A DNA stretch of 64,000 bases from Candidatus Woesearchaeota archaeon (GTDB lineage Archaea; Nanobdellota; Nanobdellia; Woesearchaeales; JACPBV01), in the NCBI GenBank assembly GCA_016180135.1, contig JACPBV010000005.1, positions 802 to 64,801 of the forward strand, read 5' to 3'. Within the stretch, counting starts at the first letter, position 1. Each line of letters opens with the position of its first letter. The position numbers and the translations under genes are program-made. Below, piece by piece: positions 3,101 to 31,220 of this stretch. The notes below the pieces were generated by a model, which was not told the DNA's origin, searched no databases, and was given only the letters and a program-made list of their open reading frames with translations.

Positions 3101-3172
3101 GCAATCAATTAAGATTTCCCTACACAAAATGCAGCCCTCCTGGCAGGAAGCCCAAGCAGCCTAAACAATCAG

Positions 3173-10287: not shown

Positions 10288-13200
10288 ATGGCAAAGAATT
10301 CAATCAAAACAGGGGCAGGAAATAAGCGCACAACAGCAATCCCCCAGATTTGGGGGGATGGTAATCTCCAGAGATTAAGCTTTCTAAAAGGAGAAAGATT
10401 AAGCTTTCTGAAGGCAGAGGGATTAAGCCTTCTGAAGGCGCAAAAATTGGCCGCTATTTTCCTCCTTGCGTTGATCATCACATTCCCCATCTCCTCAACC
10501 ATCGCCTACGCAGAGCTTATCAATCCGGCAATAACAGGCTCAAAGAATATCCCGGGTTTCGTAGAAGCAAACGAAACAATCACCCTTCAGGCCAGAGCCC
10601 GGATTGCAGGAGACGATGATATCACTCCATCCCAGGTTCCCCTTTTTGAGCCATCCGGCCCTAACGTATTGTTCATTCAGGGCTGCGCCGAGGAGCCAAA
10701 CAAGGTTTTCAGGTGCACCTCATTCCTCTCCCCATCTGAAGTTTCCCAAAGAACTCTCTCTGAAAAAGTTTTTTCAATTCCGCTGTATCTCCTCCGCAAC
10801 GACGGCACCCAGGAGGATTCTGAAAATGTGCCGGGAGAAGTGGATGAGCTTCCGCCGGTATTCTCCGGAATCAGCATCTCTCCCCTTCAGGCAGGCTTCG
10901 ATGATCTCACGATAAGCTTTGATGTGACCGACTTCGGCAACAGCATCTCCCAAAACTGCGTTGGGCTGAAATCGCTGGTCGTCTCTTCGGGCTCATTTGT
11001 AAAAGAAATAGGCATTCAGAACCCCAGCTGTTCGTTAGCCTCAGGCGTTTCGATTGACTCGGAGGAGATCATTGACGATAAAGAATTTGACGGCAACATC
11101 ACAGTCACCGTAAAAGCAGCGGACAGGTTCGGGCAGGAGTCTTCCGAAAAGAATTTTAATGTCACTCTAGACAGGATGGAGCCGGAGATTAAGGGGGAGC
11201 AAAGCTTCCAGCTTCTTGACGGGGGCTTACACGAAGTTTTTTATTCAGCCGGTTCTCAGATTGTGGCTTCTGCAAGAGTAAATGTCACAGACAGCTTTCT
11301 TAATATTAGCTCGATAAGGGCAGATTTCTCTTCCCTAAATCCGGGGAATGGAATTAAATCTGCGGCTTGCAGCTTTGATGGTGAGAATGCAAGCTGCAGT
11401 TGGGCTGGAATCCTCGTTGACGTTTCCGCTACAGGAGATTTTCCAATAATTATCAATGCGTCGGATACTCTTGGGAATAATGCAACATTTGAAATTATCT
11501 ACCATATTGGACTGGATACAACTAGGCCTGAAGTCGTTTCCTTTTCGGCAGGATACCAAAAAAGTGATAAGGCGACCTCCCCAATAAATTTCTTTGGTCA
11601 ACGAGAAAATAACATAACCATAACCCTCAAGGAGTCCGGCTCCGGCTTCAGCAAAAAGAATATTGCGCTTGACTTGCGAAATATTAACAGCAACCTTGGA
11701 AGATATGACCCCGACTGGTGCAAAAAGACAAGCCCGGAGTTATGGGAATGTACATGGAACAATACTCAAATCCTCTCAAGTAATGAAAGAGTTTCCGATG
11801 GGCAAAAAGAAATTTTAATTCTTCCCGCCGGTTCAGACGATGTTGGCAATGCCCTGATCGGCGACCTTAGCCAAAATATTACTCTGGACTTATCTAAACC
11901 AGTCCTGACGGGAATTAGATACACGCCAAGCGCACCAAAAGCGCCTGAGCCTTTGATCCTAACATTCACCGCATCAGACTCATCACCTGAGCTTTTCGTT
12001 TATGCCAACACTTCACAGATTAGCTCAAGGGAAATTATCGCCGGGGAATGTGATACAAGCAGTAAGTGCAGGATTGAAATAACCGATTTGTTCACCGCCC
12101 ACATCAATGCAACAGTTTCATTGTTTGCCAGGGATATTGCGGGCAACATTGCAGAAGTCAAATATCCTGTAACCCTTTTTGAGCCGGATGCTGAAACCCA
12201 GCCAAACTTTTTCAGGATTGCGAGTGTCGAGCCAGTTCCTCTTTTCGTCGACAGGAAGGTTGCAAGCCAAATCCCATTGAAGCTCTACATTTATACAAGG
12301 CTTGCTAAGGTTGGAGAGCCAACAATTATCCAAAACTCGGTTGACTGCACTGAGTCTGCGAATTATATTAACGGGGCTGCTTACGTTCCCGGAGCTGGCT
12401 CGGGGCAATCTGCTCTTCCTGAGCTGAACAGGGGTTATTACCTGATGAATGAAGGTACCTTAGAGCCCATTATTGCATTGGAGTCATCGCAGGAAATCGC
12501 AAAACTGGAAAAGGATTTTGTTGAATACCGCTGCAAGTTTAACCTTCAGGTGAGGGACAAGACAAAGGTGTACGCAAAGCCTGAGGTTGAAGAGATCAAG
12601 GTGAGATTTACATTACGGGGGAATTCCCTTGGAGACATTCAGGAAAACCTCCAGAAAAAGATGGAGGGAGTCAACAAAGACATCCAGGAAACAGAGAAAG
12701 ATATACAGGATTTGGAAAAGTGGGTGAATATCTTTGGCATCTACTGCAAAATCTCAAGCATGATGGGTGCTTTGAATTCTGCGATACAGGCGATTAAGGC
12801 AGCACTGCAGCCAGTCTTATCAAGCATTTTCATTGCCTGCGCTACCTGTTGTGCAAAATGTGTTGACTTTGGGGCTGCATGCGCATGCGCAACTGCCACA
12901 ATGGCAACCTGGAAAGGCCTTTGCACATCAAGCTCCCTTCTCCACAAGCTCGTTGACGGATTCTTTTGGCCGGTAGGATTGCCGTTCAGGACATTCACAT
13001 CCCCCTGGACTATTGCCGGCTGGTTCCTCAAAGTAGGCTGCATGATCCTGTATTACTGCGCATTGTCCGACTGGGACCAGATGGTCTCATTGGGGGGTGA
13101 GGTAATAAGGGGAGCGCTGCCAAAGAGTGGGTTGGGGAAAATAGAAGAAAGATATAAAGAGTATAAGGATGATACTACAGTGGAACTTGTCAATGGAGAT

Positions 13201-14202
13201 TATGTCCAGTATAACTCTCAAAAGGATAGGATGGTTGTAATGTCGGGACCAAGTTATGAATTAGAAAGACCTGTCACATACAGTCTTGAATCTACTGCAC
13301 TAATGGATGTTAAACTCGTTGGTCAACCCTATATACCAGTCTCAGATGTTTTGTCGGTAAATGATATACCCGGTGGAGTCTCCTCAAGCTCAAATGCAAA
13401 AGATAGGTTCTTAACGAGATTAGCTAATGGAAATCAGCATAAAGAAGATTCATCTCAAACCATTAACCCCTCAGGTAACCCATCCACATCAAATTCCCAA
13501 CAATCTCCGAAAGCACCAGGCCCAGTCAAAAAAGCCCTTGGGATGGGCGGCAGCAAGTCATTCCTGGGATTGAAGAAGCCATCAACTAAAGACACCTTCC
13601 CGATTCAGTCAACCGATCTTGCAAACTCGTGGAACAAAGACTCAACTTCAAGCGATATCCCTTTCCTGTCAGACAAAAATCTTGCTTTTGACCCATATAA
13701 AAGCATCCATTACGCAGAAGACTCAAGGTGTTATCCTGCAATCATCTACAACAAGAAAAAAGAAAAACAGATCAAATGCCTCTACCGCAACTGCATCCAG
13801 AACCATCTGTCTGCAGGCCAGCCGACAACCATATGCGACTTTGCGTATAAGGAGCGGGAATGCCTCTATGTCCAAAGCGCCCAATACCTGAAGAATGGTT
13901 ACAAGGGATTTTTTGACAACCTCTTCAAAGCCTTGCTGAAATATGCAGTTTTCCTCATCATCGGGCATTGGCTTGCGGAAGGAAAGTGCAAGGTGTATTT
14001 CACGCCGGGAACAGATGCGATCTGCGCAGATCCTCCCCCGAGCGCTGGGGCAACCTACTCTGTCCTCTGCGGCACCATAGGCGCTCTTTTTGCCTACATG
14101 GAGATATCCTCAATCATGCAGTCAAAATTTGGTTTTTCCGATGACAAAACCGAGCTGCAAGGGCCGGACTTTTGCTCCGGAAGCGAGGATGGATTAGGAT
14201 AA
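10288..14202 (+). CDS. giant secreted surface protein A (Ig-like repeats, Cys-rich hydrophobic C-terminal region)
   Basis: A 1304-aa ORF with signal peptide 'KLAAIFLLALIITFPISSTIAYA'. It is homologous from the signal peptide onward to the 26665 protein. The true start is uncertain because the first ~55 codons contain a 3x24-nt repeat. Confidence 0.8.
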   Translation: MAKNSIKTGAGNKRTTAIPQIWGDGNLQRLSFLKGERLSFLKAEGLSLLKAQKLAAIFLLALIITFPISSTIAYAELINPAITGSKNIPGFVEANETITLQARARIAGDDDITPSQVPLFEPSGPNVLFIQGCAEEPNKVFRCTSFLSPSEVSQRTLSEKVFSIPLYLLRNDGTQEDSENVPGEVDELPPVFSGISISPLQAGFDDLTISFDVTDFGNSISQNCVGLKSLVVSSGSFVKEIGIQNPSCSLASGVSIDSEEIIDDKEFDGNITVTVKAADRFGQESSEKNFNVTLDRMEPEIKGEQSFQLLDGGLHEVFYSAGSQIVASARVNVTDSFLNISSIRADFSSLNPGNGIKSAACSFDGENASCSWAGILVDVSATGDFPIIINASDTLGNNATFEIIYHIGLDTTRPEVVSFSAGYQKSDKATSPINFFGQRENNITITLKESGSGFSKKNIALDLRNINSNLGRYDPDWCKKTSPELWECTWNNTQILSSNERVSDGQKEILILPAGSDDVGNALIGDLSQNITLDLSKPVLTGIRYTPSAPKAPEPLILTFTASDSSPELFVYANTSQISSREIIAGECDTSSKCRIEITDLFTAHINATVSLFARDIAGNIAEVKYPVTLFEPDAETQPNFFRIASVEPVPLFVDRKVASQIPLKLYIYTRLAKVGEPTIIQNSVDCTESANYINGAAYVPGAGSGQSALPELNRGYYLMNEGTLEPIIALESSQEIAKLEKDFVEYRCKFNLQVRDKTKVYAKPEVEEIKVRFTLRGNSLGDIQENLQKKMEGVNKDIQETEKDIQDLEKWVNIFGIYCKISSMMGALNSAIQAIKAALQPVLSSIFIACATCCAKCVDFGAACACATATMATWKGLCTSSSLLHKLVDGFFWPVGLPFRTFTSPWTIAGWFLKVGCMILYYCALSDWDQMVSLGGEVIRGALPKSGLGKIEERYKEYKDDTTVELVNGDYVQYNSQKDRMVVMSGPSYELERPVTYSLESTALMDVKLVGQPYIPVSDVLSVNDIPGGVSSSSNAKDRFLTRLANGNQHKEDSSQTINPSGNPSTSNSQQSPKAPGPVKKALGMGGSKSFLGLKKPSTKDTFPIQSTDLANSWNKDSTSSDIPFLSDKNLAFDPYKSIHYAEDSRCYPAIIYNKKKEKQIKCLYRNCIQNHLSAGQPTTICDFAYKERECLYVQSAQYLKNGYKGFFDNLFKALLKYAVFLIIGHWLAEGKCKVYFTPGTDAICADPPPSAGATYSVLCGTIGALFAYMEISSIMQSKFGFSDDKTELQGPDFCSGSEDGLG
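10373..10444 (+). repeat. tandem repeat, 3 x 24 nt, in the annotated 5' end of giant gene A
   Basis: 'gattaagctttctaaaaggagaaa', 'gattaagctttctgaaggcagagg' and 'gattaagccttctgaaggcgcaaa' encode RLSFLKGE/RLSFLKAE/GLSLLKAQ. Confidence 0.8.
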
Positions 14203-14302
14203 AAAATAAAATTCCACCCCCAGCAAAGCTGCGGGGTATGAACCAATTTTGAGTAATCAAAAATCGGCAGTACATTCGTTTCAATTGAGATTTGGTAAAG
14301 GG

Positions 14303-15652
14303 ATGCAAAGAAAGGTCAAGATGATTAAAGGAATAAAACCAAAAAGGTTGTCTCCATCTTTAGTGCTCTTGCTCATCATAGCCACAGCTTTTGCAAGGCA
14401 GGACCTTTCGGGGTTTAATCCGGCTGTCGGAGGCTGGTATCAGGTTTCTCCCCAAGAGATTGATTTCTGCAAAAGGTATGGCGGCTCAGAAGATGCTGGG
14501 ATAAATCAGGATTCCCGATCATCAATCCCCATTGCATTATCCCAGATTACGCTCACACTTCAGGCCAAAAGAACCTCAACCTTGGCTAACGGGCAAAGAA
14601 ACGACCTCTATGAGGTAAGCTACTACATTGAGCCGGTGAGCGGTGAAGTGGACTTTGAGGTTCAGCTTCTTGGAGAGTTTACCCCCCCTTTAGATATACC
14701 TAATGGAAGAGGGAGGGCAAAAAGCACAGAGCCGGGGATGGGATTTTATGCTAACTACCATACGGAAGTTTACTCCTCAGCAAAAATTAAATTTGGCAAT
14801 GACTTCATTGAGGTGCCCGTTATCTCTTCAGGAAGGTCTTCTGTTGAACAGGCTCTTGCAGACCAAAAGCTTGCCGCTTCTGTCAGCTCTCAGGAAGGCA
14901 CCTCTCCAAAAGGAATTTCGGTGTCAGGCTTCGACCAATGCATCGAGGATTTCTCATGTGAGTATTATTTCCTGTTCTTGCCGGTAGGGGCGGAATGGCG
15001 TAATCAGGATGTTTTTAATGCACTCGCATACCAGCGGATGCTGTTCTTTAAAGACATATCAAAGTTTAAAAGCAGGAAAGCAGGGGCTGTTTTTGCGCCA
15101 ATTTCGTTCGCATCTGAAAACTGTAACCTTATTAACATCGAGGAAAATTTCCAAAAGCGTGAAATGCACGACAGGATACAGGCGTGCGCTGATAAATATG
15201 CAAGAAGCCTTGGGATAGGATATGAGCGTGCTGTGGGCTTATCTGGCTCTGAAAGTGTTGAAGGAGCCTTTAATGGATATGCCTATTTCACATCGAAAGC
15301 CGCATTTGCCAGGAGGGGCGGTCCCCCCCATGGAGACATAACTTCAGTTGTAGCCCATGAATGGGGGCACACGTATCAGCTATGTGATGAATATAAATAT
15401 CAAACATACTCCAGCCAAGAAAACGAGATAACATGCAAGAACGATTGGCCGACCGAATGCCCGAAGGCTGATTCCTGCTCTGGCCCCCATTGTTATAAAG
15501 AGCTGTGCCGTGGCAATTTCCCGGTCTTTAGGGATTATTCAGGCCCCCCTCTCCCATCAGTCTGCAGGATGGAGGCCAAATATTCAGTAATGGGGGTCGG
15601 AGATGGCGTATGCGGCTTTGATAAAACAGGAGGCTATGAAGCGTTAGGGTGA
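14303..15652 (+). CDS. secreted zinc metalloprotease-like protein (HEXXH)
   Basis: Contains 'VVAHEWGHTYQLCDEY', an N-terminal signal anchor 'LSPSLVLLLIIATAFA' and a Cys-rich C-terminus. The first ATG in frame is at 14303. Confidence 0.7.
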   Translation: MQRKVKMIKGIKPKRLSPSLVLLLIIATAFARQDLSGFNPAVGGWYQVSPQEIDFCKRYGGSEDAGINQDSRSSIPIALSQITLTLQAKRTSTLANGQRNDLYEVSYYIEPVSGEVDFEVQLLGEFTPPLDIPNGRGRAKSTEPGMGFYANYHTEVYSSAKIKFGNDFIEVPVISSGRSSVEQALADQKLAASVSSQEGTSPKGISVSGFDQCIEDFSCEYYFLFLPVGAEWRNQDVFNALAYQRMLFFKDISKFKSRKAGAVFAPISFASENCNLINIEENFQKREMHDRIQACADKYARSLGIGYERAVGLSGSESVEGAFNGYAYFTSKAAFARRGGPPHGDITSVVAHEWGHTYQLCDEYKYQTYSSQENEITCKNDWPTECPKADSCSGPHCYKELCRGNFPVFRDYSGPPLPSVCRMEAKYSVMGVGDGVCGFDKTGGYEALG

Positions 15653-16659
15653 AAATAAAGATGAAATTAAAAATGTTTTTTGGTGTTGGCGCCTTTTTAT
15701 TATTTTTCATTTCTCAAGCGTCAGCTTTGACCATCTGCGAATATGGCCTTGAGATTTCCAAAACGAACGATGTGAATCTGCTTAATATCAACACTTTTCC
15801 CGGAATTGAAGAACCGGATCTTTCGCCCTCCTCAAAATACCAGTTTATCATAAAAAACTCGGAAGATGAGGCAGTTTACCTGAGAGGGATACCCGTATTC
15901 TTCGGTATCCTTGACGCTGATGAGGAGGTGGATGCTATCCCTGTATCAGTGAGGGTCCCTTGCAGCGAAGATGCTGAAAGGCTTGATATAACCTTGGGCG
16001 GAAAGCCAATCTTTTCTTCCGATATTGCCAATCTCCTCTGCAATAAAGACACCGTATGCAATGGGTTTGAAACCTCATTACGATGCTCAGACTGCCCGCA
16101 GTCCTCTTCAGATGGGTGGTGCGACAGGATCAAAGATAACAGATGTGACCCTGATTGCCGGGGAGTTGATATTGACTGCGGCATTGTGGATTCATTTGTT
16201 GCATTAGAAACTTCAGGACCTCTTGCGCTTCAGGGCGAAACCGCTGACAAGCAGAAAAGGCCTGAAGAGCCTTCTGTCGACGGAAGCCTAGGAGAAAAGT
16301 TACCCATCCAATCGCTTCAAAAAACGAGGAGTGAGAAAAACCAGCAGGAATTATTGTTGGATGAGGCACTCATAGGTGAATTATGCAATAAAAATGGCAT
16401 TTGCGATGAAAACGAGGACAGCCAAACTTGCCCTATTGAATGCCCCCCGTCCGATGGGCAGATTGAGCAGCATGATAAAACGGGTGCAGAGGAAATAATA
16501 ACAGGGGTTGCGCCCCAGGCTGAATCTGGAGATAATGCTTCATTTTTCAGGAATCGGAAACCATTGCTGGCGGGACTCATCTTATTGGTAACTGCAATCC
16601 TTGTTATTGGGATTGCCATTCGTTTCATCCGCAGGAGGAGAAGCTATGAGTTTCCATAA
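15649..16659 (+). CDS. Cys-rich secreted protein with a C-terminal membrane anchor
   Basis: It has a signal peptide and two 'C.K.(G/T).C(D/N)...(S/T)..C..(D/E)C' modules reminiscent of Myxococcus-type cysteine-rich repeats. The C-terminal TM is 'LLAGLILLVTAILVIGIAI' followed by RRRR. Confidence 0.6.
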   Translation: MKIKMKLKMFFGVGAFLLFFISQASALTICEYGLEISKTNDVNLLNINTFPGIEEPDLSPSSKYQFIIKNSEDEAVYLRGIPVFFGILDADEEVDAIPVSVRVPCSEDAERLDITLGGKPIFSSDIANLLCNKDTVCNGFETSLRCSDCPQSSSDGWCDRIKDNRCDPDCRGVDIDCGIVDSFVALETSGPLALQGETADKQKRPEEPSVDGSLGEKLPIQSLQKTRSEKNQQELLLDEALIGELCNKNGICDENEDSQTCPIECPPSDGQIEQHDKTGAEEIITGVAPQAESGDNASFFRNRKPLLAGLILLVTAILVIGIAIRFIRRRRSYEFP

Positions 16660-17464
16660 CTTTGGATTGTGGCTTAAGGGCCTTTCTATAGTGAAGAGCT
16701 TTTCAGCTATAGGCAGGGAAAGCCTTCTCTTGATGCTTTTTGAGATAATAAAAGTCTTTGCGGCAGTTGCCATTTTCCTTCTCCTCAGCATGAGCCTCCG
16801 TTCCGGTTTCCATAGCATCGGAATTTCAGATGATCTTATGGAAGATGCTCTCAATAATTTAGGAGTGCCATCCTATCAGGAAAAATTCATTCAGGAAAAA
16901 GTTCCCGAGCCATCCACATTTAAAAACAGGTTTTATTTCCTTATTTTTAATACCGGATTAAAGATAGTTGGCTCGCTTCTCACCCTTATGGCGATAAGCT
17001 CGGCGCTCAACGCATGGGGATGGTGCATTATCCAGAAAAAGAGATGCTCATGGAAATTTATTCTCAGGTATATGGGGCTGATGGCACTTTGGGTATTTTC
17101 CTGGCTGGCTGGTTTTCTTGCGATAACGCTCAACCTGAAGCCAAATCTCATCCCCTGGGCCGCTCCGATAATGCTTTTCCTCTTTATTTTCTTTTCTTTT
17201 ATCCTATTCCCTACATTTGCTATACGGGGAAATATTTTCGCATCCCTGAAACAGGCCTTTGCTCTTGGAATTAGAAAATTCCATATTTTTTTTGGAAATA
17301 TTCTTTGGGCATATATTGTTTATCAGATAGGATTAATCCTGGTAATCTCCCAATCATCCTTCCAGCGCATAATCCTGTATCTTGTTCCATTAATGATTAT
17401 CCTGGGATTTGTTTGGGTAAAATATTTCAGCCTCGAGGTTTTAAAAAATGCGGCAAACAGGTAA
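16646..17464 (+). CDS. polytopic membrane protein, paralog of 38394 and 58865
   Basis: Multiple hydrophobic helices. It shares the block 'IRGNIFASLKQAFALGIRKFH' with 'LRAIREGLAEGIRLHH' in the 38394 protein. It overlaps both neighbours. Confidence 0.6.
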   Translation: MSFHNFGLWLKGLSIVKSFSAIGRESLLLMLFEIIKVFAAVAIFLLLSMSLRSGFHSIGISDDLMEDALNNLGVPSYQEKFIQEKVPEPSTFKNRFYFLIFNTGLKIVGSLLTLMAISSALNAWGWCIIQKKRCSWKFILRYMGLMALWVFSWLAGFLAITLNLKPNLIPWAAPIMLFLFIFFSFILFPTFAIRGNIFASLKQAFALGIRKFHIFFGNILWAYIVYQIGLILVISQSSFQRIILYLVPLMIILGFVWVKYFSLEVLKNAANR

Positions 17465-20453
17465 GAAGGGGCAGGTTTCCCTCTTTATTATTGTAGGATT
17501 GGTCCTCTTGATAGGAGTTTCTATGATCATCCTCTACCAAAATATCAATGAGAAAAAGATTACGCCGGAGGTTGGCAAGGCATCATCATCAGAAGTCCCC
17601 CAATGGGCTGTGCCAGTCAAAGACCTTATGGAAAGCTGCATTGCCTCAATTGCCATTGACGGGCTCAGGAAGATAGGGCAGCATGGGGGATACATCAACC
17701 CAAGAGATTCATTCCTCTCAGGCAGGGCATTTACCTTTGATGATAACCCGACAGAATCGGATTTCTTCCAGCCTTCTGCATTATCCTCCAGCCAGATTGC
17801 TTACTGGTGGTATCTCAAGAGCCCAAATGCATGCATTGACTGCGACCTTTCAACAAATAAGCCAACTCTTGACGAAATAGCGGTCCAGATAAGCAAATAC
17901 GTCAACCAGCGGCTGCACAATTGCACAAAATATATGGAAGATTTTGAGAAACAGGGTTTTGAAGTGGATATTGGAGCCCTGACAACTGCAACATCAATCC
18001 CGGAAAAGGGTGTCGATATTAAGGTGGAAAATCCAATCACTCTAAAAAAAGAAGGAACAACTGCAACAATACCGGAGTTTTCTGTCCACCTTGATCTCAA
18101 TCTTAAAGACATATTTGAGCTCGCCCTGAAGATTATCTTGTTTCAGGCCGATGAGATGGCATTGGAACAGGTGGTGACAACGTTGATCAGCCTTAAAGCT
18201 GGAACTCCAGATTCCTCCCGAATCCCTCCGATGTTTGCCTCTGACAGCAAATCAACCCAGGTGACATGGATCCCGTCAAAGGTTGAAAAGAACTTGAAAG
18301 AAGACATGCTTGCCAGCTATATCCCCTTGATTCAGGTTGACAAGACAAGGGGGGCGAAAAAAATTGCAGTCGCAAACACTCTGGAACAGGGGTTGTATGA
18401 CCTTATCTTTTGGGATGTCCCTATTTTGGGGAATGATGACATCAAAATCAACATGGAGTATAATCCCAAACAAGAAATCTATTTTGATATTACGCCCCAA
18501 AGAGCCGGAATTCTGAAGCCGGAATCTGCCACAAGGGATTCTCCACTGGGAATCACACCTTCAAGAACATTAAACATTTACAATTTCTACTATGACCTCT
18601 CCTTTCCCGTTGTCCTCACCCTTTGGGACAATAATTCTTTGAAGCAGAGCGGAATCCCTGGCTACATTTTCCAGGTTGCGATGGAAGGGAACATCCGGGA
18701 TAACAAAGATCTGCTTCAGTGGCATGAAGGCTCCGGCTCAGTCCAAATTGACAGCAGCAATCTCCAGTTCACCGGAAATATCGGCTCTGCCACTGCCGGA
18801 ACATGTGTCCCTGCTGGAAGCAAATTTCAATGCACCCTTGATGGAAGAGAATATCCAAGAGAGGACCTCTGCACCATCGGATGCAAAATTGACTCTTCAG
18901 TCCAGGGAGATTTTCCCAGCCTGCCATCGCTGGAATGCGATCCGGGCCAGAAAATTTCAGGAGAGCATACGATAAATTTGAAAGATAAAAAGACCAAAGA
19001 GCCAATCGAGGGCGCTTCTATCAGCTATACTTGCGGAAATTCCAGAATTTGTCGCCTTGGCACAACCGACGCTGCTGGCACATTCAAAGGTAAATCTCAA
19101 ATCTGTATAGGTGATGGGATTATTACTGCCGAAAAACCGGATTATATGGCTGCCACCATGGCGGGAATGACAGTAATGCCTGGACAAAGCGTTTCCATCA
19201 ATCTCCAATCGAGAACTTTTGCTGAAAAAGAAGTTGAGGTGGTGTTTATAAACATTTCAAATATGTTTAGGGTAAAAAGGCTGTTAAGCTCTCTCCTCAC
19301 TACAGCGGCATTTTCTATCTACGATGAGGCTGCCTTGAGAGAAAATAACGCCAACAAATTCAACAACGACATCCTTCCTTACATAATGAGAAGCCAGGGG
19401 ATTCTGCCAGCTCTTTTCTTTGAAGCCAATGGCCAGATTGCCAATAAAGTTTGCTATTGTCAGGACATTGCAGGAAAAAAAGATTACAACTGCTTCCAAT
19501 GCCTCCCCGACAATATAAACCCAGCCTTGCTTTCCCAGAAAGACATCCAAAATATTAGGGATTATTTTAAGCTCCCCAATAGTGCAGTATATATTAAGCC
19601 AAGAAGATTTCCAACAGAGCCTATTGTAGAGTATTCTTATTTTCCAGTCCTCTATGGTGCACATTTGAAAATCCTTAGGTTCTTCCATTACAGTGATATG
19701 GATCCGAGGAAAGTCGCCGAATCACTTGGGGAGGTTTATAGTGCATTGCACGAGGTAAACAGCTATATTAAGCAAGTTATGGCAGATCCGAATCTAATTG
19801 GGGAAATCATTGAAAAAAAGTCAAATGGACAAAAAAGGGGATTTACAGGAGATATTCTCCCATCCCAGGAGATTATTGGCCAGATTTCAGCATTAGACCG
19901 GAAAATTCAGCATGAGTTCAGCAATCTTCAGGCAAGATCAAATACAGAAAAAAACCAGGCCTCCAATATTCAGGATTACAGGGCAGCTGCAAAACCTTTT
20001 TCGGGGCCGTTTGAAGGAGTGATCCAGCTCAACAGAATTAAAGAAAGTCCCTCCGAAGGAAATCTTCCACTTCCCTCAGCAATTGTGGGCGATAGTGAAA
20101 ACACCAGGCTTTCCCTTATGCCAGGAAAATATGAAGCCACTATCAATGTTCAGCGGAAAAACCCGGCAGTAATCAGCAGGAATAATCTCCTTGATACGAT
20201 TCGGCTTCCCAGCGGAAGCAATTTCATCGCGGGCCAGGATGTTGAGTATAATCTCCTCGGTGGTGCGCAAATTAGCCAAAGCAATGGGTACTGGAACATT
20301 GGAGAAGATGAACTTGATGGAAGCAGTAAAATAAGATTTTATGCATTTATCACTGACATCCCCGAAAATGCTGAAGATTTCTCGGAAATGGGCAATATTG
20401 GAGATTACTCAAAAAGATATAGATTATATATTGAGCCGGAATTTCTACCATAA
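17448..20453 (+). CDS. large protein with a class III (prepilin-like) signal peptide, module A
   Basis: The N-terminus is 'MRQTGKKGQVSLFIIVGLVLLIGV'. It aligns with the 24539 and 39398 proteins at 'YWWYLKS' and 'FYYDLSFPVVLTLWD'. Confidence 0.8.
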   Translation: MRQTGKKGQVSLFIIVGLVLLIGVSMIILYQNINEKKITPEVGKASSSEVPQWAVPVKDLMESCIASIAIDGLRKIGQHGGYINPRDSFLSGRAFTFDDNPTESDFFQPSALSSSQIAYWWYLKSPNACIDCDLSTNKPTLDEIAVQISKYVNQRLHNCTKYMEDFEKQGFEVDIGALTTATSIPEKGVDIKVENPITLKKEGTTATIPEFSVHLDLNLKDIFELALKIILFQADEMALEQVVTTLISLKAGTPDSSRIPPMFASDSKSTQVTWIPSKVEKNLKEDMLASYIPLIQVDKTRGAKKIAVANTLEQGLYDLIFWDVPILGNDDIKINMEYNPKQEIYFDITPQRAGILKPESATRDSPLGITPSRTLNIYNFYYDLSFPVVLTLWDNNSLKQSGIPGYIFQVAMEGNIRDNKDLLQWHEGSGSVQIDSSNLQFTGNIGSATAGTCVPAGSKFQCTLDGREYPREDLCTIGCKIDSSVQGDFPSLPSLECDPGQKISGEHTINLKDKKTKEPIEGASISYTCGNSRICRLGTTDAAGTFKGKSQICIGDGIITAEKPDYMAATMAGMTVMPGQSVSINLQSRTFAEKEVEVVFINISNMFRVKRLLSSLLTTAAFSIYDEAALRENNANKFNNDILPYIMRSQGILPALFFEANGQIANKVCYCQDIAGKKDYNCFQCLPDNINPALLSQKDIQNIRDYFKLPNSAVYIKPRRFPTEPIVEYSYFPVLYGAHLKILRFFHYSDMDPRKVAESLGEVYSALHEVNSYIKQVMADPNLIGEIIEKKSNGQKRGFTGDILPSQEIIGQISALDRKIQHEFSNLQARSNTEKNQASNIQDYRAAAKPFSGPFEGVIQLNRIKESPSEGNLPLPSAIVGDSENTRLSLMPGKYEATINVQRKNPAVISRNNLLDTIRLPSGSNFIAGQDVEYNLLGGAQISQSNGYWNIGEDELDGSSKIRFYAFITDIPENAEDFSEMGNIGDYSKRYRLYIEPEFLP

Positions 20454-20562: not shown

Positions 20563-21861
20563 TTAAGATTCAACTGATGATCCAAAATCCATATTTTTAA
20601 TGTATTCCCTAAACTCCTCCTCTGTCTCAAAGCCCAGCGCAGTCACATTGAACTGCGAAGCATTGATATTTCCGGGATCAAACGTGGAAAGCTGCGAAAG
20701 GGAATCGCAGGACTGCTTCAGGTATCTGTTGGCAAGCTTCCCGCACACGGTGTAATCCCCCTTCGTCACAAACTCCATATAGCACTGGTCCCTTCTGGTT
20801 TCTTTCACGACCTTCTCGCAGATTTTCGCATCCAGCCTGCCGATGGCAAAATCAAAAAAGCAGTCATCCTTGCTCCGCTCGTCAACAACAGGATCGCAGC
20901 CTTCAAGCTTTCCTGACTGGACTGCAGCCTTCGTGAAGCAGGTGTTCTGATACGTCAGTATCTCAATGTCCCTGCACATCCTGGCTGCTTTCTCATAATC
21001 CCTTTTGGCGATATCGCCGATGATATCTATTTTTTCGAAGATTGATTTTTCCCCAAAGGCATCCTCTTCAGCATCGGGGGGAGCATTGGAGGGAGCATCG
21101 CAGTCAGACAGGCAGGTTTCATAATTCTCTGCGGAACTGCAGATCCCGTCCCCGCAGCACGGGTCAATGACCTCATGCCTGCAGCTGAATCCAGTTTCCC
21201 TGCCGCAAGTATCCCTGGTGCATTTGTTCTGGTCATCGCATGTTGCCGGGCACTGCTCCTCAGCGATATTCCTGATCTGCTCCTGCACGCTCTCGATATT
21301 GAAGTTTGCGGTGCTGGTGGACTTTCCGTCAGGATGGAGCGCAGAGACTTTCACATAATAGCTCCCGGGCAAAGCATCCCCGGATAAGGGCAATGTTTTT
21401 TCCCCGGAAAATTTGTCCTTGAGCGCAACTTTCTCCGACCCTGAGCCGATAAGCTCATCCCGAAGGCTGAACAGCTCAAATTTGACCTCGGTGTCTATCA
21501 AAACCCCTTTTTCAGGATTATCGAGGGAATAAAGCACTTTGACAGCATCGCCCGGCTCGAAGCTTGTTCTTGAAAGCGACGCCTTGATGCCTAAGACAAT
21601 CGGCCCTGCCCCCGGAGTTGCAATGAGATAAACCGTAAACCCGCTGCCAAGGAGCAGAACAAAAACAATGGCGATGGCAACAGCCGCCTTTTCTCTGTTA
21701 ACCGGCTTTACCTGCGCAGCAGGCCTGCTGAGCTCCTGATAAGCCCCATCAACAGCCTGGGCAGGATAATGGTATCTGAGCAGATAGTCCCGGATCTGCT
21801 GCCAGCTGTAGCCGGCCCGCAGTTCTTCCCTGATATAGCTGATGAGCGAAGGCGGCGCCAT
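20563..21861 (-). CDS. single-pass membrane protein with an Ig-like and Cys-rich ectodomain
   Basis: It has a cytoplasmic N-terminal helical domain and the TM 'AVAIAIVFVLLLGSGFTVYLIA'. The ectodomain carries a 'CCGDGICSSAENYETCLSDC' module. Confidence 0.65.
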   Translation of the reverse strand: MAPPSLISYIREELRAGYSWQQIRDYLLRYHYPAQAVDGAYQELSRPAAQVKPVNREKAAVAIAIVFVLLLGSGFTVYLIATPGAGPIVLGIKASLSRTSFEPGDAVKVLYSLDNPEKGVLIDTEVKFELFSLRDELIGSGSEKVALKDKFSGEKTLPLSGDALPGSYYVKVSALHPDGKSTSTANFNIESVQEQIRNIAEEQCPATCDDQNKCTRDTCGRETGFSCRHEVIDPCCGDGICSSAENYETCLSDCDAPSNAPPDAEEDAFGEKSIFEKIDIIGDIAKRDYEKAARMCRDIEILTYQNTCFTKAAVQSGKLEGCDPVVDERSKDDCFFDFAIGRLDAKICEKVVKETRRDQCYMEFVTKGDYTVCGKLANRYLKQSCDSLSQLSTFDPGNINASQFNVTALGFETEEEFREYIKNMDFGSSVES

Positions 21862-24300: not shown

Positions 24301-24465
24301 ATGAGCAAACAAATCAGGATCACTATATCCAATGAGATAGATGACCTGCTTTCTAAGATTGCCAAAAAGCTCGGCAAGAAGAAATCCATGCTTGCAAGGG
24401 AGCTGATGGAGCAGAAGATGTATGACCTCAATGTGATGCAGAAAGAGCTGGAGAATCTGAAATGA
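24301..24465 (+). CDS. ribbon-helix-helix (CopG-like) small protein, not in the supplied ORF track
   Basis: My own translation gives MSKQIRITISNEIDDLLSKIAKKLGKKKSMLARELMEQKMYDLNVMQKELENLK (54 aa). The RHH pattern is clear, and it lies just upstream of module B. Confidence 0.5.
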   Translation: MSKQIRITISNEIDDLLSKIAKKLGKKKSMLARELMEQKMYDLNVMQKELENLK

Positions 24466-24538: not shown

Positions 24539-26668
24539 ATGAACAGCCACATTTTGTTTAATGGAAAAAGGGGCCAGCTTACTTTATTCATCGTCATCGG
24601 AGCTGTTCTTCTTATTGGCGGGGCGATTTATTTTTCAGCCCGTGAGCAGGCTGCAAGGCAGGAACTGCAGCCATTTACCCAGTCGCTCATCCAGGAAGTC
24701 CCGTCAGAATTCGCCCCCGTCCAGGCTTTTGTGGACAGATGCCTCGGCCAGACTGCAAGGGAAGGCCTTCAGATCCTGGGCGAGCATGCAGGATTCATCA
24801 GCCTTTTGGAGAACAACATCAACGCACGGGATGATGCGACAAATGCAGACGCAGTCCCTCTGGCCAGAGGCTCTGAATATGCGATACCTTATTGGTGGTA
24901 TCTTAAGTCCGGCAATGGCTGCGCAGCGAATTGCGAGTTTTCTATGGTTCCGGGAAATAAGCTGTTCCTGAGGAAAACGCCGGGAAAAGCCTCTATTGAA
25001 GGCCAGCTGGAAGAATATATCAACGCAAACATCAATGACTGCCTTGCGGATTTCCGGGAGATAAAAGCCCAGGGCTTCAATGTCTCGCCAAAAAGATCAC
25101 CAAGGTCAGCTGTCACTATTTATCTTGGGCAGATGGGCATCAGGCTGGACTTCCCGCTTGAGGTAACCAAAGAGGCAGCAAGAGAGCTCTCAGATTTCTT
25201 GATATCCTTGCCTCTGGATTTCGCAAAAGTATACAACACCGCCTCAAGGCTTGCTGCGATGCAGGCAGATATGAAATTCCTCGAAAAGCACACATTGAAC
25301 CTGATCACTGCTTTTTCCGGGCTTGACAGGAACAAATTGCCGCCATTTGCTGACGTAAGGCCTTCCTTCGGGCCAAAAGTCACCTGGTCAGAATCCCAGT
25401 CCATGGAGCGCTTTAAGAATAATGTTCTTCCCCCCAACATCCAGCTGCTGAAAGTCTTTGGCGCTAAAAATTACGAGCCCTACCCTTTTTTCACAGACCC
25501 TCTGCTGGATTCGCTCTACAACCGGGGCATGCTTATCCCCGGAACAGCAAACTACAGCAGCCTTGAGATAACGTTTGAATACAACCCTTTCTGGAACATC
25601 TACTTTGATATTGACTGCAACGGAGACAGCTGCGAGCCGGAAACATTCCAGGAGAACTTCATCACAGGGATTATCCTCCAGCAGTATAACTTTGTCTATG
25701 ACATCTCTTTTCCCGTCAAGGTCACCATCAGGGATACCGAAGCATTCAACGGCGAAGGGTATCTTTTTACATTCTTCCTCGAAGCAAACATACGGCAGAA
25801 CGATCCGATGCCGTCCGCCTATTCAAGGATTGAGGCGCTGCAGCCGTCGGGAAATTCGCAGTTCTGCGATTCAGACAAAAAAACCTCAGGAGAGATAACG
25901 ATTGAAGCAAAGGATTCTGTCAGCGAACAGCCGATACCTGAAGTTCAGGTCATAATCTCAACAGGGACAGAAAACTGCCTGATAGGAACGACAGATGAAG
26001 AAGGAAAGCTTGTATCCCAATTCCCTGTCGCTTTCGGCCCCGTCGTGAGCTTCACAAAACCGGGCTTTATCGGCTACTCCCAGAGAATTGAGCCGAGAGT
26101 TGACAAAAAGCAGTTTCTCAGCATTGCGCTCAACCCCAAGGTCGCCAAAAGCTTTGAGATCCAGAAACGCCTGAGGACAAGGCAGCCCGGGCAGAAAGAC
26201 TGGGAGATCGGCAGCATCGCAAACCTGTCCAGATACGAAGAGGCAACAATCATTTTGACAAGACTAAGCGGCTTGCAGGAGCAGGATTACACAACCGGAA
26301 GCGCGTATGTTGTGAACCTGACCGAACTTCCAACGATAGATATTGCTCCCGGGAAGTATGAAGTCCGCATCATGCTCCTTGACAGCAGGAACCTCTCAAT
26401 TCCCCAGAAAAAGATCAAAGTCAAAGATGAAAGCTTCACCCTGCCGGAGATCGGCCTTGGCGAGGGCTTCAAGACAGGCGGCGCATTGTATAATTTCACC
26501 TTCACCAAATATAATCTGCAGAAGGATAAGCTTGTCTTTTACGTATTGAATCCGGACATCCTGGCTATCCCTGAGCCGCAGAGGACTTTAGATGACCTTG
26601 ATGAGCTGACAAATGTTGACCAGGCTTCAGCAAGATACTGGGAAAAGCTGACCCAGGGGATACGATGA
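24539..26668 (+). CDS. large protein with a class III (prepilin-like) signal peptide, module B
   Basis: The N-terminus contains 'GKRGQLTLFIVIGAVLLIGG'. It shares 'YWWYLKS' and 'FVYDISFPVKVTIRD' with its paralogs. An ATGA overlap links it to the next gene. Confidence 0.8.
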   Translation: MNSHILFNGKRGQLTLFIVIGAVLLIGGAIYFSAREQAARQELQPFTQSLIQEVPSEFAPVQAFVDRCLGQTAREGLQILGEHAGFISLLENNINARDDATNADAVPLARGSEYAIPYWWYLKSGNGCAANCEFSMVPGNKLFLRKTPGKASIEGQLEEYINANINDCLADFREIKAQGFNVSPKRSPRSAVTIYLGQMGIRLDFPLEVTKEAARELSDFLISLPLDFAKVYNTASRLAAMQADMKFLEKHTLNLITAFSGLDRNKLPPFADVRPSFGPKVTWSESQSMERFKNNVLPPNIQLLKVFGAKNYEPYPFFTDPLLDSLYNRGMLIPGTANYSSLEITFEYNPFWNIYFDIDCNGDSCEPETFQENFITGIILQQYNFVYDISFPVKVTIRDTEAFNGEGYLFTFFLEANIRQNDPMPSAYSRIEALQPSGNSQFCDSDKKTSGEITIEAKDSVSEQPIPEVQVIISTGTENCLIGTTDEEGKLVSQFPVAFGPVVSFTKPGFIGYSQRIEPRVDKKQFLSIALNPKVAKSFEIQKRLRTRQPGQKDWEIGSIANLSRYEEATIILTRLSGLQEQDYTTGSAYVVNLTELPTIDIAPGKYEVRIMLLDSRNLSIPQKKIKVKDESFTLPEIGLGEGFKTGGALYNFTFTKYNLQKDKLVFYVLNPDILAIPEPQRTLDDLDELTNVDQASARYWEKLTQGIR

Positions 26669-29600
26669 CAGCAAAAAACAAAACAGCACAGGCGCTCTTC
26701 CTCATCACCTTAGTATTGACCCTGCCGTTCTACTCATCCCTGGCGTATGCCTCCCTGAGCAGCCCTTCCGTCAAAGGGGCAGACGGCTTTCCCGGATTTG
26801 TCCGGGGAAATGAGCAGTTTCAGATAAATGTGACAGCCTTCATTGCGCCCAATGAGGTGATAACCCCCAACCAGCTGTCAACAGTTGACGTAAACGGCCC
26901 GCCATTTGACAGCTGCCTCGACATCGGCTCCGGGAATTTCCAGTGCATCAAAGCTTTTGATGCTTCAACCCTGTCGCAAAACCCTTTCACTTTAAACATA
27001 AAGCTCTTCAGAGACGGCGGGTCGCAGGAATCAAACTTATTGGTAAACGGCATTATTGACCAGCTTCCTCCGATAATAAATACATTTGCGATAACCCCCC
27101 AAAAAACATCGTCAGGAAATATCTCGCTGCAGTGGTCTGTCACCGACGTTTCCCACTCCCCAGCTGCCCTCACCCAATGCACCGGCATCAAGAAGGTCGA
27201 ATTTTCATCATCTGAACGGGGAGTGTTCCGCTCAATACCGCTCAACAGCTTCCCGGTCTGCGGGCGGAGCAGGACAGAGAGCATTCCTGTTAGCCTCATC
27301 ACCGGAAGTGATGGGAACATCTCAGTTACCCTGAGGGTTTTTGACGGGGTAAATCTGCAGTCAGCCCAGGAGAGCACCTTCGTGTTTGACACAACTCCCC
27401 CATCCATCGTCGTTGATTCGCTGAAGATTGTTGACAATGCAGGAAATGACCTCAGCTTCCTGACAAACATTTCAGCCCTCTCCTCGATAAAGTTCAAGAT
27501 AAACGCCAATGACCTCAATGTGAGTTCCGTCTCTGCAGACATCTCTTCCCTCAGCACCGATCCCCCTGCTGATTTCAGGAAAAAGCCGGTTGGCTGCATC
27601 AGGTCTGCCTTCGATGAATTTAACTGCTCGATTGCAGGCATACCGGTGAGCATCAGCCAGTCCCTTAATGCCCAGATAATTGTCAACGCATCTGATGCTT
27701 TAGGGAATAAGCAGACAGCGCAGTTGGCAAAGCAGCTGAATTTTGACAATCTTGGCCCGGTTGTTGCCTCCATAACGACAGATTTCCGGAATGCGGCAGA
27801 TGGAAGGAGCTTCGCAGGAAAAAAGACAAATTTCTTTGTCACCCTGGCTGAAGGGGGCGTGGGCGTTGATAAAAATGATGTCAGGCTCGATTTAAGCTCT
27901 GTCAACAGCGCGCTTGCATCTGCATCGCCCGATGAATGTGTTTCTTCCGGAAATGAGATAACCTGCGTCTTTGCAAATATCACCCCAACAGCTTCTGACG
28001 GCGTCAGGCCGATCAGGGTTCTTTCCTCTTCCCGGGACAGGCTTGGGAATCCTGTATCTGGAGCTTTGGAAGAGAATATAACCATAGACACCACCCTGCC
28101 AAAGATTGAGAAGTTTTCCGCCAAAGCGCTGGCAACAGGAACCTCAACGACCTTCCCGCCGTTCCTGAAGACAGGAGATGCGTTTGCCTTTGAGGTGAAT
28201 GTGACGGAGAAAAATGATTTTACGATAAAAGCTGATTTTTCAAACATTGTGACGACAATGCAGGAGCCCGTTGCAGGACAGTGCTCAGTGGCCGCTGTGA
28301 TTTCAGGCCTTGCAGGGCTTGGTGGAAATGTTTCCGTCTGCGCATGGAACACAAACCCTATAGATGTTCAGGGCCCGATAAATTCAAACATCCTCATCAA
28401 TGTGACTGACGCTGCCGGAAACAGCAAGATTGGCTTTGCCAACTTTACCGTCCTCCAGTTTGATGATGCCGAGGTTGTCAACCACTGGACGTCAAGAGTG
28501 GAATGCTCTCCGTCGTTGGTGGACAGGCAGATAACGCCGCTGATCAACGCCAAAGTCTACTGCCAGGTAAGGCTGCAGCCCCTAAGCAATGACCAGGAAG
28601 TGCTGGACATAAAGCTGAATCCCTCCCAGTGCGAGAGCGTTGCCAAAGATTCTTTAGATTTTGTAGATCCAGAAGGGTTTGAGCTGACGAACGGCAACAG
28701 GGGAGCGACTGAGCCTTTCGTCTCTTTCCGGCTTGCAAAAGGCGAGATGGAGATTGACCGATTGGAGTTCAGATGCCCGCTGGAGATCATAACAAGAGCA
28801 GGCCAAACAATCAACAAGAACCCCGAAGTAGAGGAAGTAACGCTGCAGGCAGGGTTCTACAACAATCCTTTAGGCCAATTTGGCGATGAAGTGAAGAAAG
28901 AGATAAAGGATGCCAAGGATATTGCGAATAATATCGGGTTTAAGATTGTGGGGTATTTGAAAGAAATCGTAAAATATGCCACGATGATTTGTAATTTGAT
29001 AGCTACAGTAGAAAAATTATGGTGGGCAATCCATAGTTTTACCAAAGGGATGACCACTGCTCACCTTGCCGCTGTTGGTCCTGCAGAAGTTGCCTTGGGC
29101 CAATATGCTTACCAAGGATGTGTTCAAGATCAATTTATTCAGAAATATAATGAAAATCTCTATACGGGATTTAGTTCATTCTGCAAATATGTAAACTGCC
29201 AATACAGCCCGGCTTCCCCTCAGGATCCTTCCAAAGGGGGCCAGATTACCAGTGAAAAGACAAAAATGGGCAAGATTCATGACTTTTTCAATTCCTGGCA
29301 GACCAAAGGAAATAACTTCTTTGGCAAAATAAGCCCTGCGACAGAAACAACGACAACCATCTCCCTTTTAGGCACTAATCTTATAGGCAGAAAAGGCACC
29401 GATAGTAAATTCCGTGACTGCAAAACAATTGAGGAATGCTCAGGTAAGCAGCCAAGCCAGTATATGAATGCGAGAGACAATCTTGGAGTTGCCCTTATGA
29501 CAGGCTGCATCCCGGGAATTATTAACGGGTTGGATAATATTCGCCAATTGTTCTGCCTCAAAGCTGACTGCCTCCAGGATAATGCAAGAAACAATGTTCC

Positions 29601-30988: not shown

Positions 30989-31037
30989 CATGCCCCGCCG
31001 CACAAAAGGCCACAGGCATACCCCAGGCATGCAGAAC

Positions 31038-31220
31038 ATGAAAACAAACAAATCAGCCAGGATTTCAGGAATCGTAATATTGTTTGCAGTTATAAGCCTG
31101 TTTGTGTTTGCCTTCTTCACAGCCCAGCTCCCGGAAGGCATGAAGCCGCTGGTTGAGGTCAGCATGAACGGTCCTGAGTCGGTGACGGGAGCGGCGGTTG
31201 GGGTGACGGGGATAAAATGA
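31038..31220 (+). pseudogene. 5' fragment copy of the 32536 surface gene (signal-anchor segment only), or a small expressed membrane peptide
   Basis: 'MKTNKSARISGIVILFAVISLFVFAFFTAQLPEGMKPLVEVSMNGPESVTGAAVGVTG' parallels residues 1-69 of the 32536 protein. It ends in an ATGA overlap with the next gene. Confidence 0.5.
31050..31212 (+). repeat. direct repeat copy 1 of the 5' coding segment of gene D
   Basis: Aligns with 32557-32719 without gaps, at about 88 percent identity by eye. Confidence 0.8.

Follow-up and report, generated by a model that had tools for sequence, protein, structure and literature searches.

A 64,000-nucleotide stretch of DNA from a Candidatus Woesearchaeota archaeon, a tiny and probably symbiotic organism (contig JACPBV010000005.1, hereafter the window), encodes three large proteins, paralogs A, B and C, which open with a short basic leader, a glutamine and a long hydrophobic helix and belong to a large archaeal family with an almost invariant N-terminal motif. 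Our analysis establishes the paralogy of the three proteins, the conservation of the motif, the domain architecture, the synteny of the family loci and the coupling of the genes to those of large partners. A sequence-only reading had taken the N-termini for class III (type IV prepilin-like) signals of the kind cut by FlaK/PibD/EppA-type peptidases. The family-wide comparison partly supports this, with cleavage predicted from sequence, and we see about an even chance that the leaders are processed class III-type signals, the retained helix anchoring or bundling the proteins and the extracellular part docking a large partner. Class III signals on large non-pilin proteins are already known; new is the combination of the family size, the QxTxFIIxG signal variant, a head without structural match, the pairing with giant partners and a locus of about 30 kb that is kept across Woesearchaeales. 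Literature searches returned no description of the family or the locus in Woesearchaeota or DPANN.

Three paralogs and the family motif

Pairwise BLASTP comparison of the three proteins (Table 1) yields E values of 8e-48 for A and B (27% identity), 3e-29 for B and C (23% identity) and 1.9e-14 for A and C. On these values they are paralogs, and the likeness of their N-termini therefore stems from common descent and not from chance. Protein B corresponds to the NCBI entry HYU14_00840 (100% identity), and the product of a fourth candidate gene, at 57310, to HYU14_00950 (100%), both entries belonging to a 68.8-kb contig. The three N-termini quoted in the sequence-only reading, whose coordinates (17448–20453) span paralog A only, agree exactly with the coordinates and translations of the open reading frames (ORFs), and a six-frame motif scan of the window finds such an N-terminus on no real genes other than A, B, C and the 57310 gene. 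The leaders comprise 8, 12 and 5 residues in A, B and C, respectively, hydropathy windows of 2.5–3.0 extend over residues 7–32 of the three N-termini, and the predicted mature proteins measure 993, 697 and 695 residues. Archaeal pilins are typically on the order of 100–200 residues long. Since large non-pilin proteins with class III signals are known, such as sugar-binding proteins and proteases of Sulfolobus (PMC2910488, PMC3387779), the size of A, B and C alone is not unprecedented.

All three N-termini follow the rules of class III signals, combining a short basic leader with K or R at position −2 and a small residue at −1; from +1 onward a hydrophobic helix extends for about 20 residues. 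The RG↓Q site (the arrow marks the known or predicted cut) is also found in haloarchaeal archaellins, which PibD processes, so that Q at +1 need not imply EppA. Cleavage of archaeal class III signals is set by positions −2, −1 and +1, the positive charge at −2 being specific to archaea and E at +5 optional (PMC3387779). The Epd pilins of M. maripaludis are cut by EppA at KGQV, KGQL and KGQI sites, for which Q at +1 is required (PMC4371748), and the sites of A, B and C are the same three tetrapeptides. The operon also encodes secreted proteins with ordinary Sec signals instead, such as the 26665 product with LAYA↓S.

A first homology search returned 23 relatives that carried no name or were called 'hypothetical'; wherever a source was given, it was Woesearchaeota. 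When 1.84 billion cluster representatives (50% identity clusters) were searched exhaustively with a profile, the family grew to 9,403 representatives at E<=1e-3, the weakest of which may partly rest on generic beta-sandwich domains alone, 6,812 at E<=1e-10 and 1,895 at E<=1e-30; every member with a named source comes from a Nanoarchaeota/Woesearchaeota (DPANN) genome. Motif statistics were drawn from 166 retrieved members, no two of which reach 50% identity. The class III rules hold across 152 of these 166 representatives, which carry the family hallmark, a basic leader followed by [KR][KR]-[G/A/S]↓Q-x-T-x-F-I-I-x-G; in most of the other 14, the gene call begins within the helix or the motif varies slightly. 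Among the 152, a match being defined by Q at +1, K or R occupies −3 in 86% and −2 in 97%, and −1 is G (67%), A (24%) or S (8%), together 99%. Downstream of the site, +3 is T in 91% and S in 7%, +5 is F in 89%, Y in 8% and never E, and +9 is G in 93%. The leader before Q is most commonly 4–7 residues long and almost always 4–8. Q at +1 is found in 95% of the rows of the 166-sequence alignment and is invariant where the N-terminus is intact, which makes it as strongly conserved as the invariant Cys, Trp and Pro residues in the fold, and the conserved positions +1, +5, +9 and +13 fall on one face of the helix. A profile of the N-terminal 44 residues alone retrieved five truncated fragments and missed known full-length members.

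Scanning JGI metagenomes with a degenerate DNA pattern for KKGQxTxFIIxG located at least 120 loci, against a chance expectation that we estimate at about 0.02. In 111 of the 120 motif ORFs (among the matches listed), the family profile is matched even by what remains after removal of the N-terminus. Lengths are bimodal among the matches listed, with many complete ORFs of about 245–320 residues and many of about 600–890, and the family overall extends continuously in length from about 250 to about 1000 residues. The short forms of about 250 residues correspond to residues 3–246 of the long forms (hhalign probability 100%, E 1.8e-40), which makes the family modular, with heads and beta-sandwiches added to a core of leader, helix and subdomain.

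Domain architecture and predicted structure

A, B and C match no Pfam or NCBIfam family above threshold. An AlphaFold2 model of B, built from a 24-sequence alignment (mean pLDDT 84.4), places an N-terminal helix at residues 9–43, a low-confidence stretch at 41–55 that holds a conserved EVPxEFxPV motif, an alpha/beta head at about 56–430, some three beta-sandwich domains at 445–672 and two C-terminal helices. The globular region that the sequence-only reading had described as common to the three proteins is indeed shared (about residues 56–430 of B). The 'GTTD' segment, which lies within a beta-sandwich of the CarboxypepD_reg/CnaB-like type, is present in A (LGTTDAAG) and B (IGTTDEEG), while C has diverged to IGQTKPDF; in A, residues 513–587 around the segment give a weak match to Pfam CarboxypepD_reg (E 0.002).

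The head modelled alone reaches pLDDT 86.0 and pTM 0.86. Foldseek comparison returned nothing below E 0.09 in the PDB or 0.036 in BFVD for the head, and profile searches against PDB sequences with two family alignments (A2 and A7) and with the partner proteins gave nothing meaningful. The head is thus not recognisably a pilin fold, and on the strength of the model it may be new. The full-length B model aligns in the PDB with beta-sandwiches only, at low TM-scores: CnaB-type and Gram-positive pilin domains, carboxypeptidase regulatory domains and SlaB, the last through the beta-sandwich region (8qox_B, E 6.9e-6). The model of B thus has an N-terminal helix ahead of a large head, with a low-confidence linker between them and no pilin-like match for the head.

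Conserved loci, partners and neighbouring genes

The order of the A, B and C genes is kept in 13 independent loci of Nanoarchaeota/Woesearchaeota metagenome-assembled genomes (MAGs), a scan of GTDB genomes with a family alignment contributing to the set; individual loci are cited below by L numbers. In Woesearchaeales the locus spans about 30 kb and holds all three paralogs. It begins with a partner paralog and smaller secreted or membrane proteins, the A-type gene and, on the opposite strand, a single-pass Cys-rich protein of 395–438 residues; a 54-residue ORF, the B-type gene and a secreted protein of 1000–1113 residues follow, and then a protein of 700–1070 residues, a polytopic membrane protein of 246–290 residues, the C-type gene and a giant protein of 1955–2185 residues. 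A-type orthologs of 714–1029 residues occur in L006, L008 and L014, and C-type orthologs of 613–671 residues in L001, L003, L004, L007, L009, L010 and L088.

The pairing with large partners extends beyond these loci. For 70 family genes, 1.5 kb or more of downstream sequence was available; in 57 of them (81%) an ORF of 400 residues or longer follows within 400 nt, the median following ORF measuring 786 residues; 54 of the 57 downstream ORFs have a hydrophobic N-terminus, and the exceptions to the coupling are mostly A-type genes, which have the partner on their upstream side. The partners have Sec signal peptides of the ordinary kind and lack an anchor. In the window, the start of the B partner overlaps the stop codon of B (ATGA), and its orthologs lie directly downstream of B-type genes in 11 loci. 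The paralog of this partner in the A sub-cluster has an ortholog upstream of the A-type gene in L014, and orthologs of the C partner follow C-type genes directly in L001, L003, L004, L007, L009 and L088.

In two further loci, L016 and L093, the operon opens with three or four small proteins of 139–312 residues that bear class III-like N-termini (MDKKG↓QSEIIG, MTNKG↓QLETG, MNKKG↓QVDQIF and MNKKG↓FAVMFSW), continues with the family gene in fourth or fifth place (645/676 residues) and ends with homologous partners of 1197–1305 residues; L028 and L036 are arranged similarly. The small proteins of family loci (112–312 residues) show no homology to the family outside the [KR]G↓Q site, as would be expected if one peptidase recognises them all. 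The motif scan found no small pilin genes near A, B and C in the window.

Table 1 Features of the window, in order of position
Feature	Coordinates	Strand	Description
B-partner paralog	10288..14202	+	1304 residues, 31 Cys; upstream in the A sub-cluster; E 5e-63 against the 26665-29949 product (BLASTP)
Secreted Cys-rich protein	14249..15652	+	467 residues; A sub-cluster; orthologs upstream of A-type genes in L006 and L008
Membrane-anchored protein	15649..16659	+	336 residues; signal peptide and C-terminal membrane anchor; A sub-cluster; weak match to L001 2285-3127
Polytopic membrane protein	16601..17464	+	287 residues, about 6 transmembrane (TM) helices; 3' end overlaps the start of A
Paralog A	17448..20453	+	1001 residues; N-terminus MRQTGKKG↓QVSLFIIVGLVLLIGV; leader MRQTGKKG, Q9 and hydrophobic helix, alpha/beta head, Cys-rich insert, beta-sandwich with LGTTDAAG, long C-terminal extension
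A, putative class III signal	17448..17537	+	Leader codons 1-8; predicted cut G8/Q9; H-domain Q9 to about Y30
Single-pass protein	20563..21861	-	432 residues; cytoplasmic N-domain of about 58 residues, one TM helix, extracellular part with 18 Cys
54-residue cytoplasmic ORF	24301..24465	+	MSKQIRITISNEIDDLLSKIAKKLGKKKSMLARELMEQKMYDLNVMQKELENLK; just upstream of B; without membrane segment
Paralog B	24539..26668	+	709 residues; N-terminus MNSHILFNGKRG↓QLTLFIVIGAVLLIGG; leader MNSHILFNGKRG, Q13, helix 9-43, EVPxEFxPV linker, head about 56-430, about three beta-sandwich domains 445-672, C-terminal helices
B, putative class III signal	24539..24634	+	Leader codons 1-12; predicted cut G12/Q13; H-domain Q13-F32
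B partner	26665..29949	+	1094 residues, secreted, 29 Cys; Sec-type signal peptide
Insertion in the conserved operon	29942..32539	+	DUF1016/YhcG nuclease (29942-30988) and Schlafen AlbA_2/HATPase_c_4/helix-turn-helix (HTH) protein (31217-32539); absent from syntenic loci
Secreted protein	32536..35799	+	1087 residues; C-terminal part of about 400 residues orthologous to the third gene of the conserved operon
Second insertion	35796..37469	+	DUF1016/YhcG gene (35796-36794), then duplicated 3' end of the 32536 gene (36843-37469, 77% amino acid identity)
Polytopic membrane protein	38394..39212	+	272 residues, 5-6 TM helices; upstream of C; adjoins C-type genes in other genomes
Paralog C	39398..41500	+	700 residues; N-terminus MKKRG↓QITVFIVIGLLILFTF; leader MKKRG, Q6 and helix, head as in A and B plus an insert of about 50 residues, diverged beta-sandwich domains
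C, putative class III signal	39398..39469	+	Leader codons 1-5; predicted cut G5/Q6; H-domain Q6 to about L24
C partner	42093..48650	+	Giant secreted protein of 2185 residues, 58 Cys; weak N-terminal fn3 match
57310 protein	57310..58494	-	394 residues, MGKRG↓EMSTHWLLY...; weaker candidate

Several smaller genes travel with the family. The 432-residue single-pass protein separates the A-type from the B-type gene in all syntenic loci, its orthologs being 36–44% identical in L001, L005–L009 and L013 and 26–29% in L012 and L014; it gives a borderline match to the Dicty_CTDC repeat (26.5 bits against a cut-off of 27). Orthologs of the polytopic protein at 38394 are found in L001 (17950–18690, ending 1 nt before the C-type gene) and L009. 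The 54-residue ORF has copies of 74–83% identity directly upstream of B-type genes in 10 other loci, in which B itself is 33–53% identical. We would guess a regulator of ribbon-helix-helix or HTH type, a guess and nothing firmer because its matches to HTH and DUF6290 families in Pfam are weak.

The polytopic proteins at 16601–17464, 38394–39212 and 58865–59665 were considered as hidden prepilin peptidases and discarded: they have no GxGD-type motif and no Peptidase_A24 match at E<=10. A viral or mobile origin of the locus is likewise unlikely, given its synteny in 13 cellular MAG loci and the housekeeping genes on its flanks; the sole insertions are the DUF1016 and Schlafen genes. The first insertion is flanked by a direct repeat (31049–31213 and 32556–32720, 88%) and the second by repeats of 92–96% identity (35328–35789 and 36905–37459). 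These direct repeats are of the interrupted host gene, the DUF1016/YhcG genes encode PDDEXK nucleases, and the G+C content of the insertions is lower, at 39–42%.

Four of the loci with B-type genes, L006, L007, L010 and L013 (CAZSRD01, CAZNZT01, CAZFPU01 and CAZTWQ01; 35–46% identity to B), come from third-party-annotation (TPA) MAGs titled 'uncultured Methanosarcinales archaeon'. The title is probably wrong, since the locus and its order are the same as in Woesearchaeota/Nanoarchaeia MAGs. In L016 (346–4263, minus strand, Ga0209541_10007477), the 1304-residue partner that follows the 645-residue family member has at its end an SLT lytic transglycosylase domain (Pfam E 2.6e-8; 33.9 bits, cut-off 21.3), a module that its L093 homolog lacks; on the surface complex of an archaeon, such a peptidoglycan-cleaving module is a hint of bacterial hosts or prey. 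L004, from a Woesearchaeote syntenic with the window, holds two pilin-sized genes 4–7 kb upstream of the B-type gene (3147–3773 and 5628–6233, plus strand), whose products of 208 and 198–201 residues have the leaders MRRNKKG↓ALELSITAIVVLII and MNKKG↓LELPINMIVLLII. Class III-like leaders lacking Q at +1 thus stand beside the KG↓Q type in this lineage, which could reflect two peptidases or a single permissive enzyme.

The fourth candidate of the window, the 57310 protein, starts with KRG↓EMST and a hydrophobic helix, which fits the loose FlaFind-like pattern. Its N-terminus, and only this part, resembles a 311-residue pilin-like protein of the L036 cluster (MSKRG↓EFNFVWLF; pairwise E 0.004), and its gene adjoins that of a membrane protein with six TM helices (58865–59665), as A and C adjoin theirs. 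No homolog was found among 5.8 billion proteins, and as an orphan it has a leader that cannot be judged by conservation. The protein, listed from the outset as the weaker case, stays a weak class III candidate. Beside it, the minus strand at 51827–57232 encodes large secreted proteins, one of 665 residues with CARDB and one of 1021 residues with a DUF5122 beta-propeller repeat, and a 105-residue protein with three TM helices between them, possibly another surface-protein cluster. PIN-domain genes at 9105–9590 and 49546–49920 (both minus strand), the first paired with a small UPF0175/DUF6290-type gene (8801–9103, minus strand), are probably toxin-antitoxin modules flanking the surface-protein region.

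Interpretation and relation to known systems

In the mechanism that we favour, a family protein would be made with a basic leader of 4–12 residues ahead of the almost invariant [KR][KR]-[G/A/S]↓Q-x-T-x-F-I-I-x-G. After membrane insertion, an aspartyl peptidase of the FlaK/PibD/EppA type, encoded elsewhere in the genome, would remove the leader at the cytoplasmic face, leaving Q as the first residue of a hydrophobic helix about 21 residues long. The helix would keep the protein in the membrane or bundle with others, in some lineages with the small pilin-like proteins encoded next door, while the linker, the alpha/beta head and up to three beta-sandwich domains would project outward. There the protein would dock and present its large, often Cys-rich, anchorless secreted partner at the surface, akin to a large minor pilin with a PilY1-type protein, and we infer a role in the cell envelope or in host contact. 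A bolder form of this reading, which we hold tentatively and regard as rather unlikely as a whole, makes the KGQ-module family and its giant partners an undescribed surface apparatus common among DPANN: the class III-processed module would take the minor pilin/PilY1 role, either priming or capping a short pilus-like stem or acting without a filament and a nearby ATPase, and would present Cys-rich effectors of 1000–2200 residues to a host.

A number of observations weigh against processing. The family has F at +5, where E is typical of EppA substrates. PF04021 Class_IIIsignal, PF07790 Pilin_N, PF07963 N_methyl and TIGR02537 give no match at E<=10 to the whole proteins or the isolated N-termini, the best curated match on the N-termini being PF13400 Tad (E 0.04–0.1); because these models likewise miss obviously pilin-like small proteins of related loci, the negative means little for DPANN. 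The B helix of the AlphaFold model leads into the low-confidence linker and is not packed on a pilin-type sheet, so that the model lacks the continuous helix of about 50 residues on an antiparallel sheet that marks a type IV pilin, and Foldseek finds no pilin match for the head. Nor is there an A24 peptidase, FlaI/PilB ATPase or FlaJ platform in the 64-kb window (Pfam), or a secretion-ATPase Walker A motif (G..GSGK[ST][ST]) in 1.04 Mb from 135 family loci, and Epd-type (TFF system 1) or EppA genes are absent from the window (Pfam) and from the Pfam families on record for three syntenic loci. According to a groundwater study, DPANN genomes lack type IV pilus components (10.1101/2020.05.14.094862). 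Elsewhere, flaK, flaI and flaJ are reported in most Woesearchaeota MAGs of one study (PMC11606122), and TFF system 1, with a dedicated EppA-type peptidase, in DPANN (bioRxiv 10.64898/2026.04.22.720090). The class III match first proposed holds for the rules and for 152 of the 166 representatives while the curated models stay silent, and the likeness to EppA substrates extends to Q at +1 and the KGQV, KGQL and KGQI sites, not to E at +5 or to an EppA-type locus in the window.

The missing machinery would be accounted for if the N-termini were uncleaved signal anchors of type II topology, with the basic residues following the positive-inside rule, the Q-x-T-x-F-x-x-x-G stripe serving as a surface on which the helix packs with itself or with polytopic neighbours, and the proteins acting as membrane stalks that hold secreted partners as SlaB holds SlaA. 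The placement of +1, +5, +9 and +13 on one helical face, the translational coupling of polytopic membrane proteins to A-type and C-type genes, the linker between helix and head, the SlaB match of the beta-sandwich region and the lack of anchors on the partners are all in keeping with such an arrangement. A signal anchor, however, needs neither G, A or S immediately before an invariant Q (99%) nor a leader of 4–8 residues, and it leaves unexplained why the [KR]G↓Q site alone is common to unrelated small pilin-like proteins of the same loci. B-type genes and the forms of about 250 residues have the motif without an adjoining polytopic membrane protein, and SlaB itself is anchored by a C-terminal, not an N-terminal, helix and is matched at low TM-scores. 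Uncleaved anchors are the main rival to processing, and we consider them rather unlikely.

The sequence-only reading had gone further and suggested tip or adhesin subunits on a pilin stem, that is, true type IV pilus subunits extracted and polymerised by FlaI/FlaJ-type machinery and decorating a stem of small pilins. The operons of L016 and L093, in which three or four small KG↓Q or KG↓F genes precede a family gene and a partner of 1197–1305 residues, mirror the bacterial minor-pilin/PilY1 module; L028 and L036 are similar, L004 has its two pilin-like genes (198 and 208 residues) upstream of the B-type gene, and bacteria have modular pilins with large grafted domains (PMC8179133). Against this stand the lack of small pilin genes near A, B and C, of an assembly ATPase motif near any of the 135 loci and of a detectable pilin fold in the head. 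Three paralogs, each with its own giant partner in an order-wide locus, look more like a fixed envelope complex than a pilus accessory, and we hold pilus subunits in this strict sense to be quite improbable; what stands of the suggestion is the occurrence, in other loci, of two to four small KG↓Q pilin-like genes beside a family gene and a partner of more than 1000 residues. Ordinary Sec signal peptides, cut by signal peptidase I after the hydrophobic stretch to release soluble proteins, would explain the basic n-region and hydrophobic stretch of all three N-termini, but that stretch is at least 20 residues long, its helix runs on to about residue 43, and charged residues (SAREQAAR, SREKRES) take the place of an A-x-A-type site behind it. 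The strongest conservation, moreover, lies at the start of the stretch and not at its end, and operon neighbours such as the 26665 protein show classic AxA-type signals. Release by signal peptidase I is accordingly very improbable.

DPANN account for a large part of archaeal diversity and seem to live attached to other cells, and their contact molecules are almost entirely unknown because their surface proteins lack recognisable domains. The family offers a concrete entry point, with thousands of clusters, a near-invariant N-terminus, a confidently predicted yet unmatched head and a link to giant partners; it is a good lead into DPANN surface biology and may build the contact apparatus of the cell. 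If the class III signal is real, prepilin-type processing would gain a major new class of substrates among large surface proteins, and KG↓QxTxF would serve as a simple tag by which genes for the envelope and for host contact could be spotted in uncultured archaea; should the leader stay uncleaved, the motif would still mark a conserved membrane-assembly interface. If the bolder apparatus reading were true, the three paralog/partner sets of Woesearchaeales would form the core of the machinery by which these episymbionts contact their hosts.

Among known systems, SlaB/SlaA of the Sulfolobales S-layer resembles the family in joining an anchored beta-sandwich stalk to a co-encoded, much larger and unanchored partner. 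SlaB is anchored at its C-terminus, whereas the only membrane helix of the family is N-terminal; the match is of generic beta-sandwiches, and the family has three anchor/partner sets per genome against one. The Sulfolobus bindosome proteins GlcS and AraS, cut by PibD, are likewise large extracellular non-pilins with a class III leader, cleavage being predicted in the present case. Their genes lie apart from those of the assembly ATPase and peptidase, and the retained hydrophobic N-terminal helix presumably holds them at the surface (PMC2910488, PMC3387779, 10.64898/2026.04.22.720090). In contrast to them, A, B, C and their neighbours have no substrate-binding-protein domain or ABC transporter families (Pfam), the head is unmatched in the PDB and BFVD, the gene is coupled to that of a large secreted partner, and positions +1 to +9 are invariant to a degree not reported for bindosome proteins.

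The Epd pilins (EpdA-E of M. maripaludis; DUF361/PF04021) share with the family the short basic leader, KG↓Q followed by V, L or I, the invariant Q at +1, the register and a helix that starts at +1. DUF361 is defined by QxSxExxxL (PMC2910488), so that the conserved register +1/+3/+5/+9 is common to both while S, E and L at +3, +5 and +9 are not followed by the family, which has F (89%) instead of E at +5 and G instead of L at +9. Family members are 250–1000 residues long, PF04021 is silent on them, and EppA or Epd assembly genes are lacking by Pfam in the window and by the ATPase motif in the 135 loci. Because +5 and +9 differ and no model matches, the family cannot be assigned to EppA/DUF361, and because neither a pilin fold nor machinery nearby was found, it cannot be assigned to the structural type IV pilins. 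From the bacterial minor-pilin/PilY1 systems it differs in its archaeal-type leader with K or R at −2, in the absence of F1 and E5 and of a detected pilin fold, in partners without a DUF2341/PilY domain, and in the lack of small pilin genes in the locus of the window's own lineage. PilY-like large proteins have been proposed in archaeal loci (Makarova et al. 2016). With minor pilins and PilY1, GspK of the type II secretion system (T2SS) and PilB of Streptococcus sanguinis, the family has in common a prepilin-type N-terminus on a large extracellular module, and the operons of L016 and L093 come close to the minor-pilin/PilY1 arrangement, with several small pilin-like genes, one large one and a non-pilin Sec partner of more than 1000 residues.

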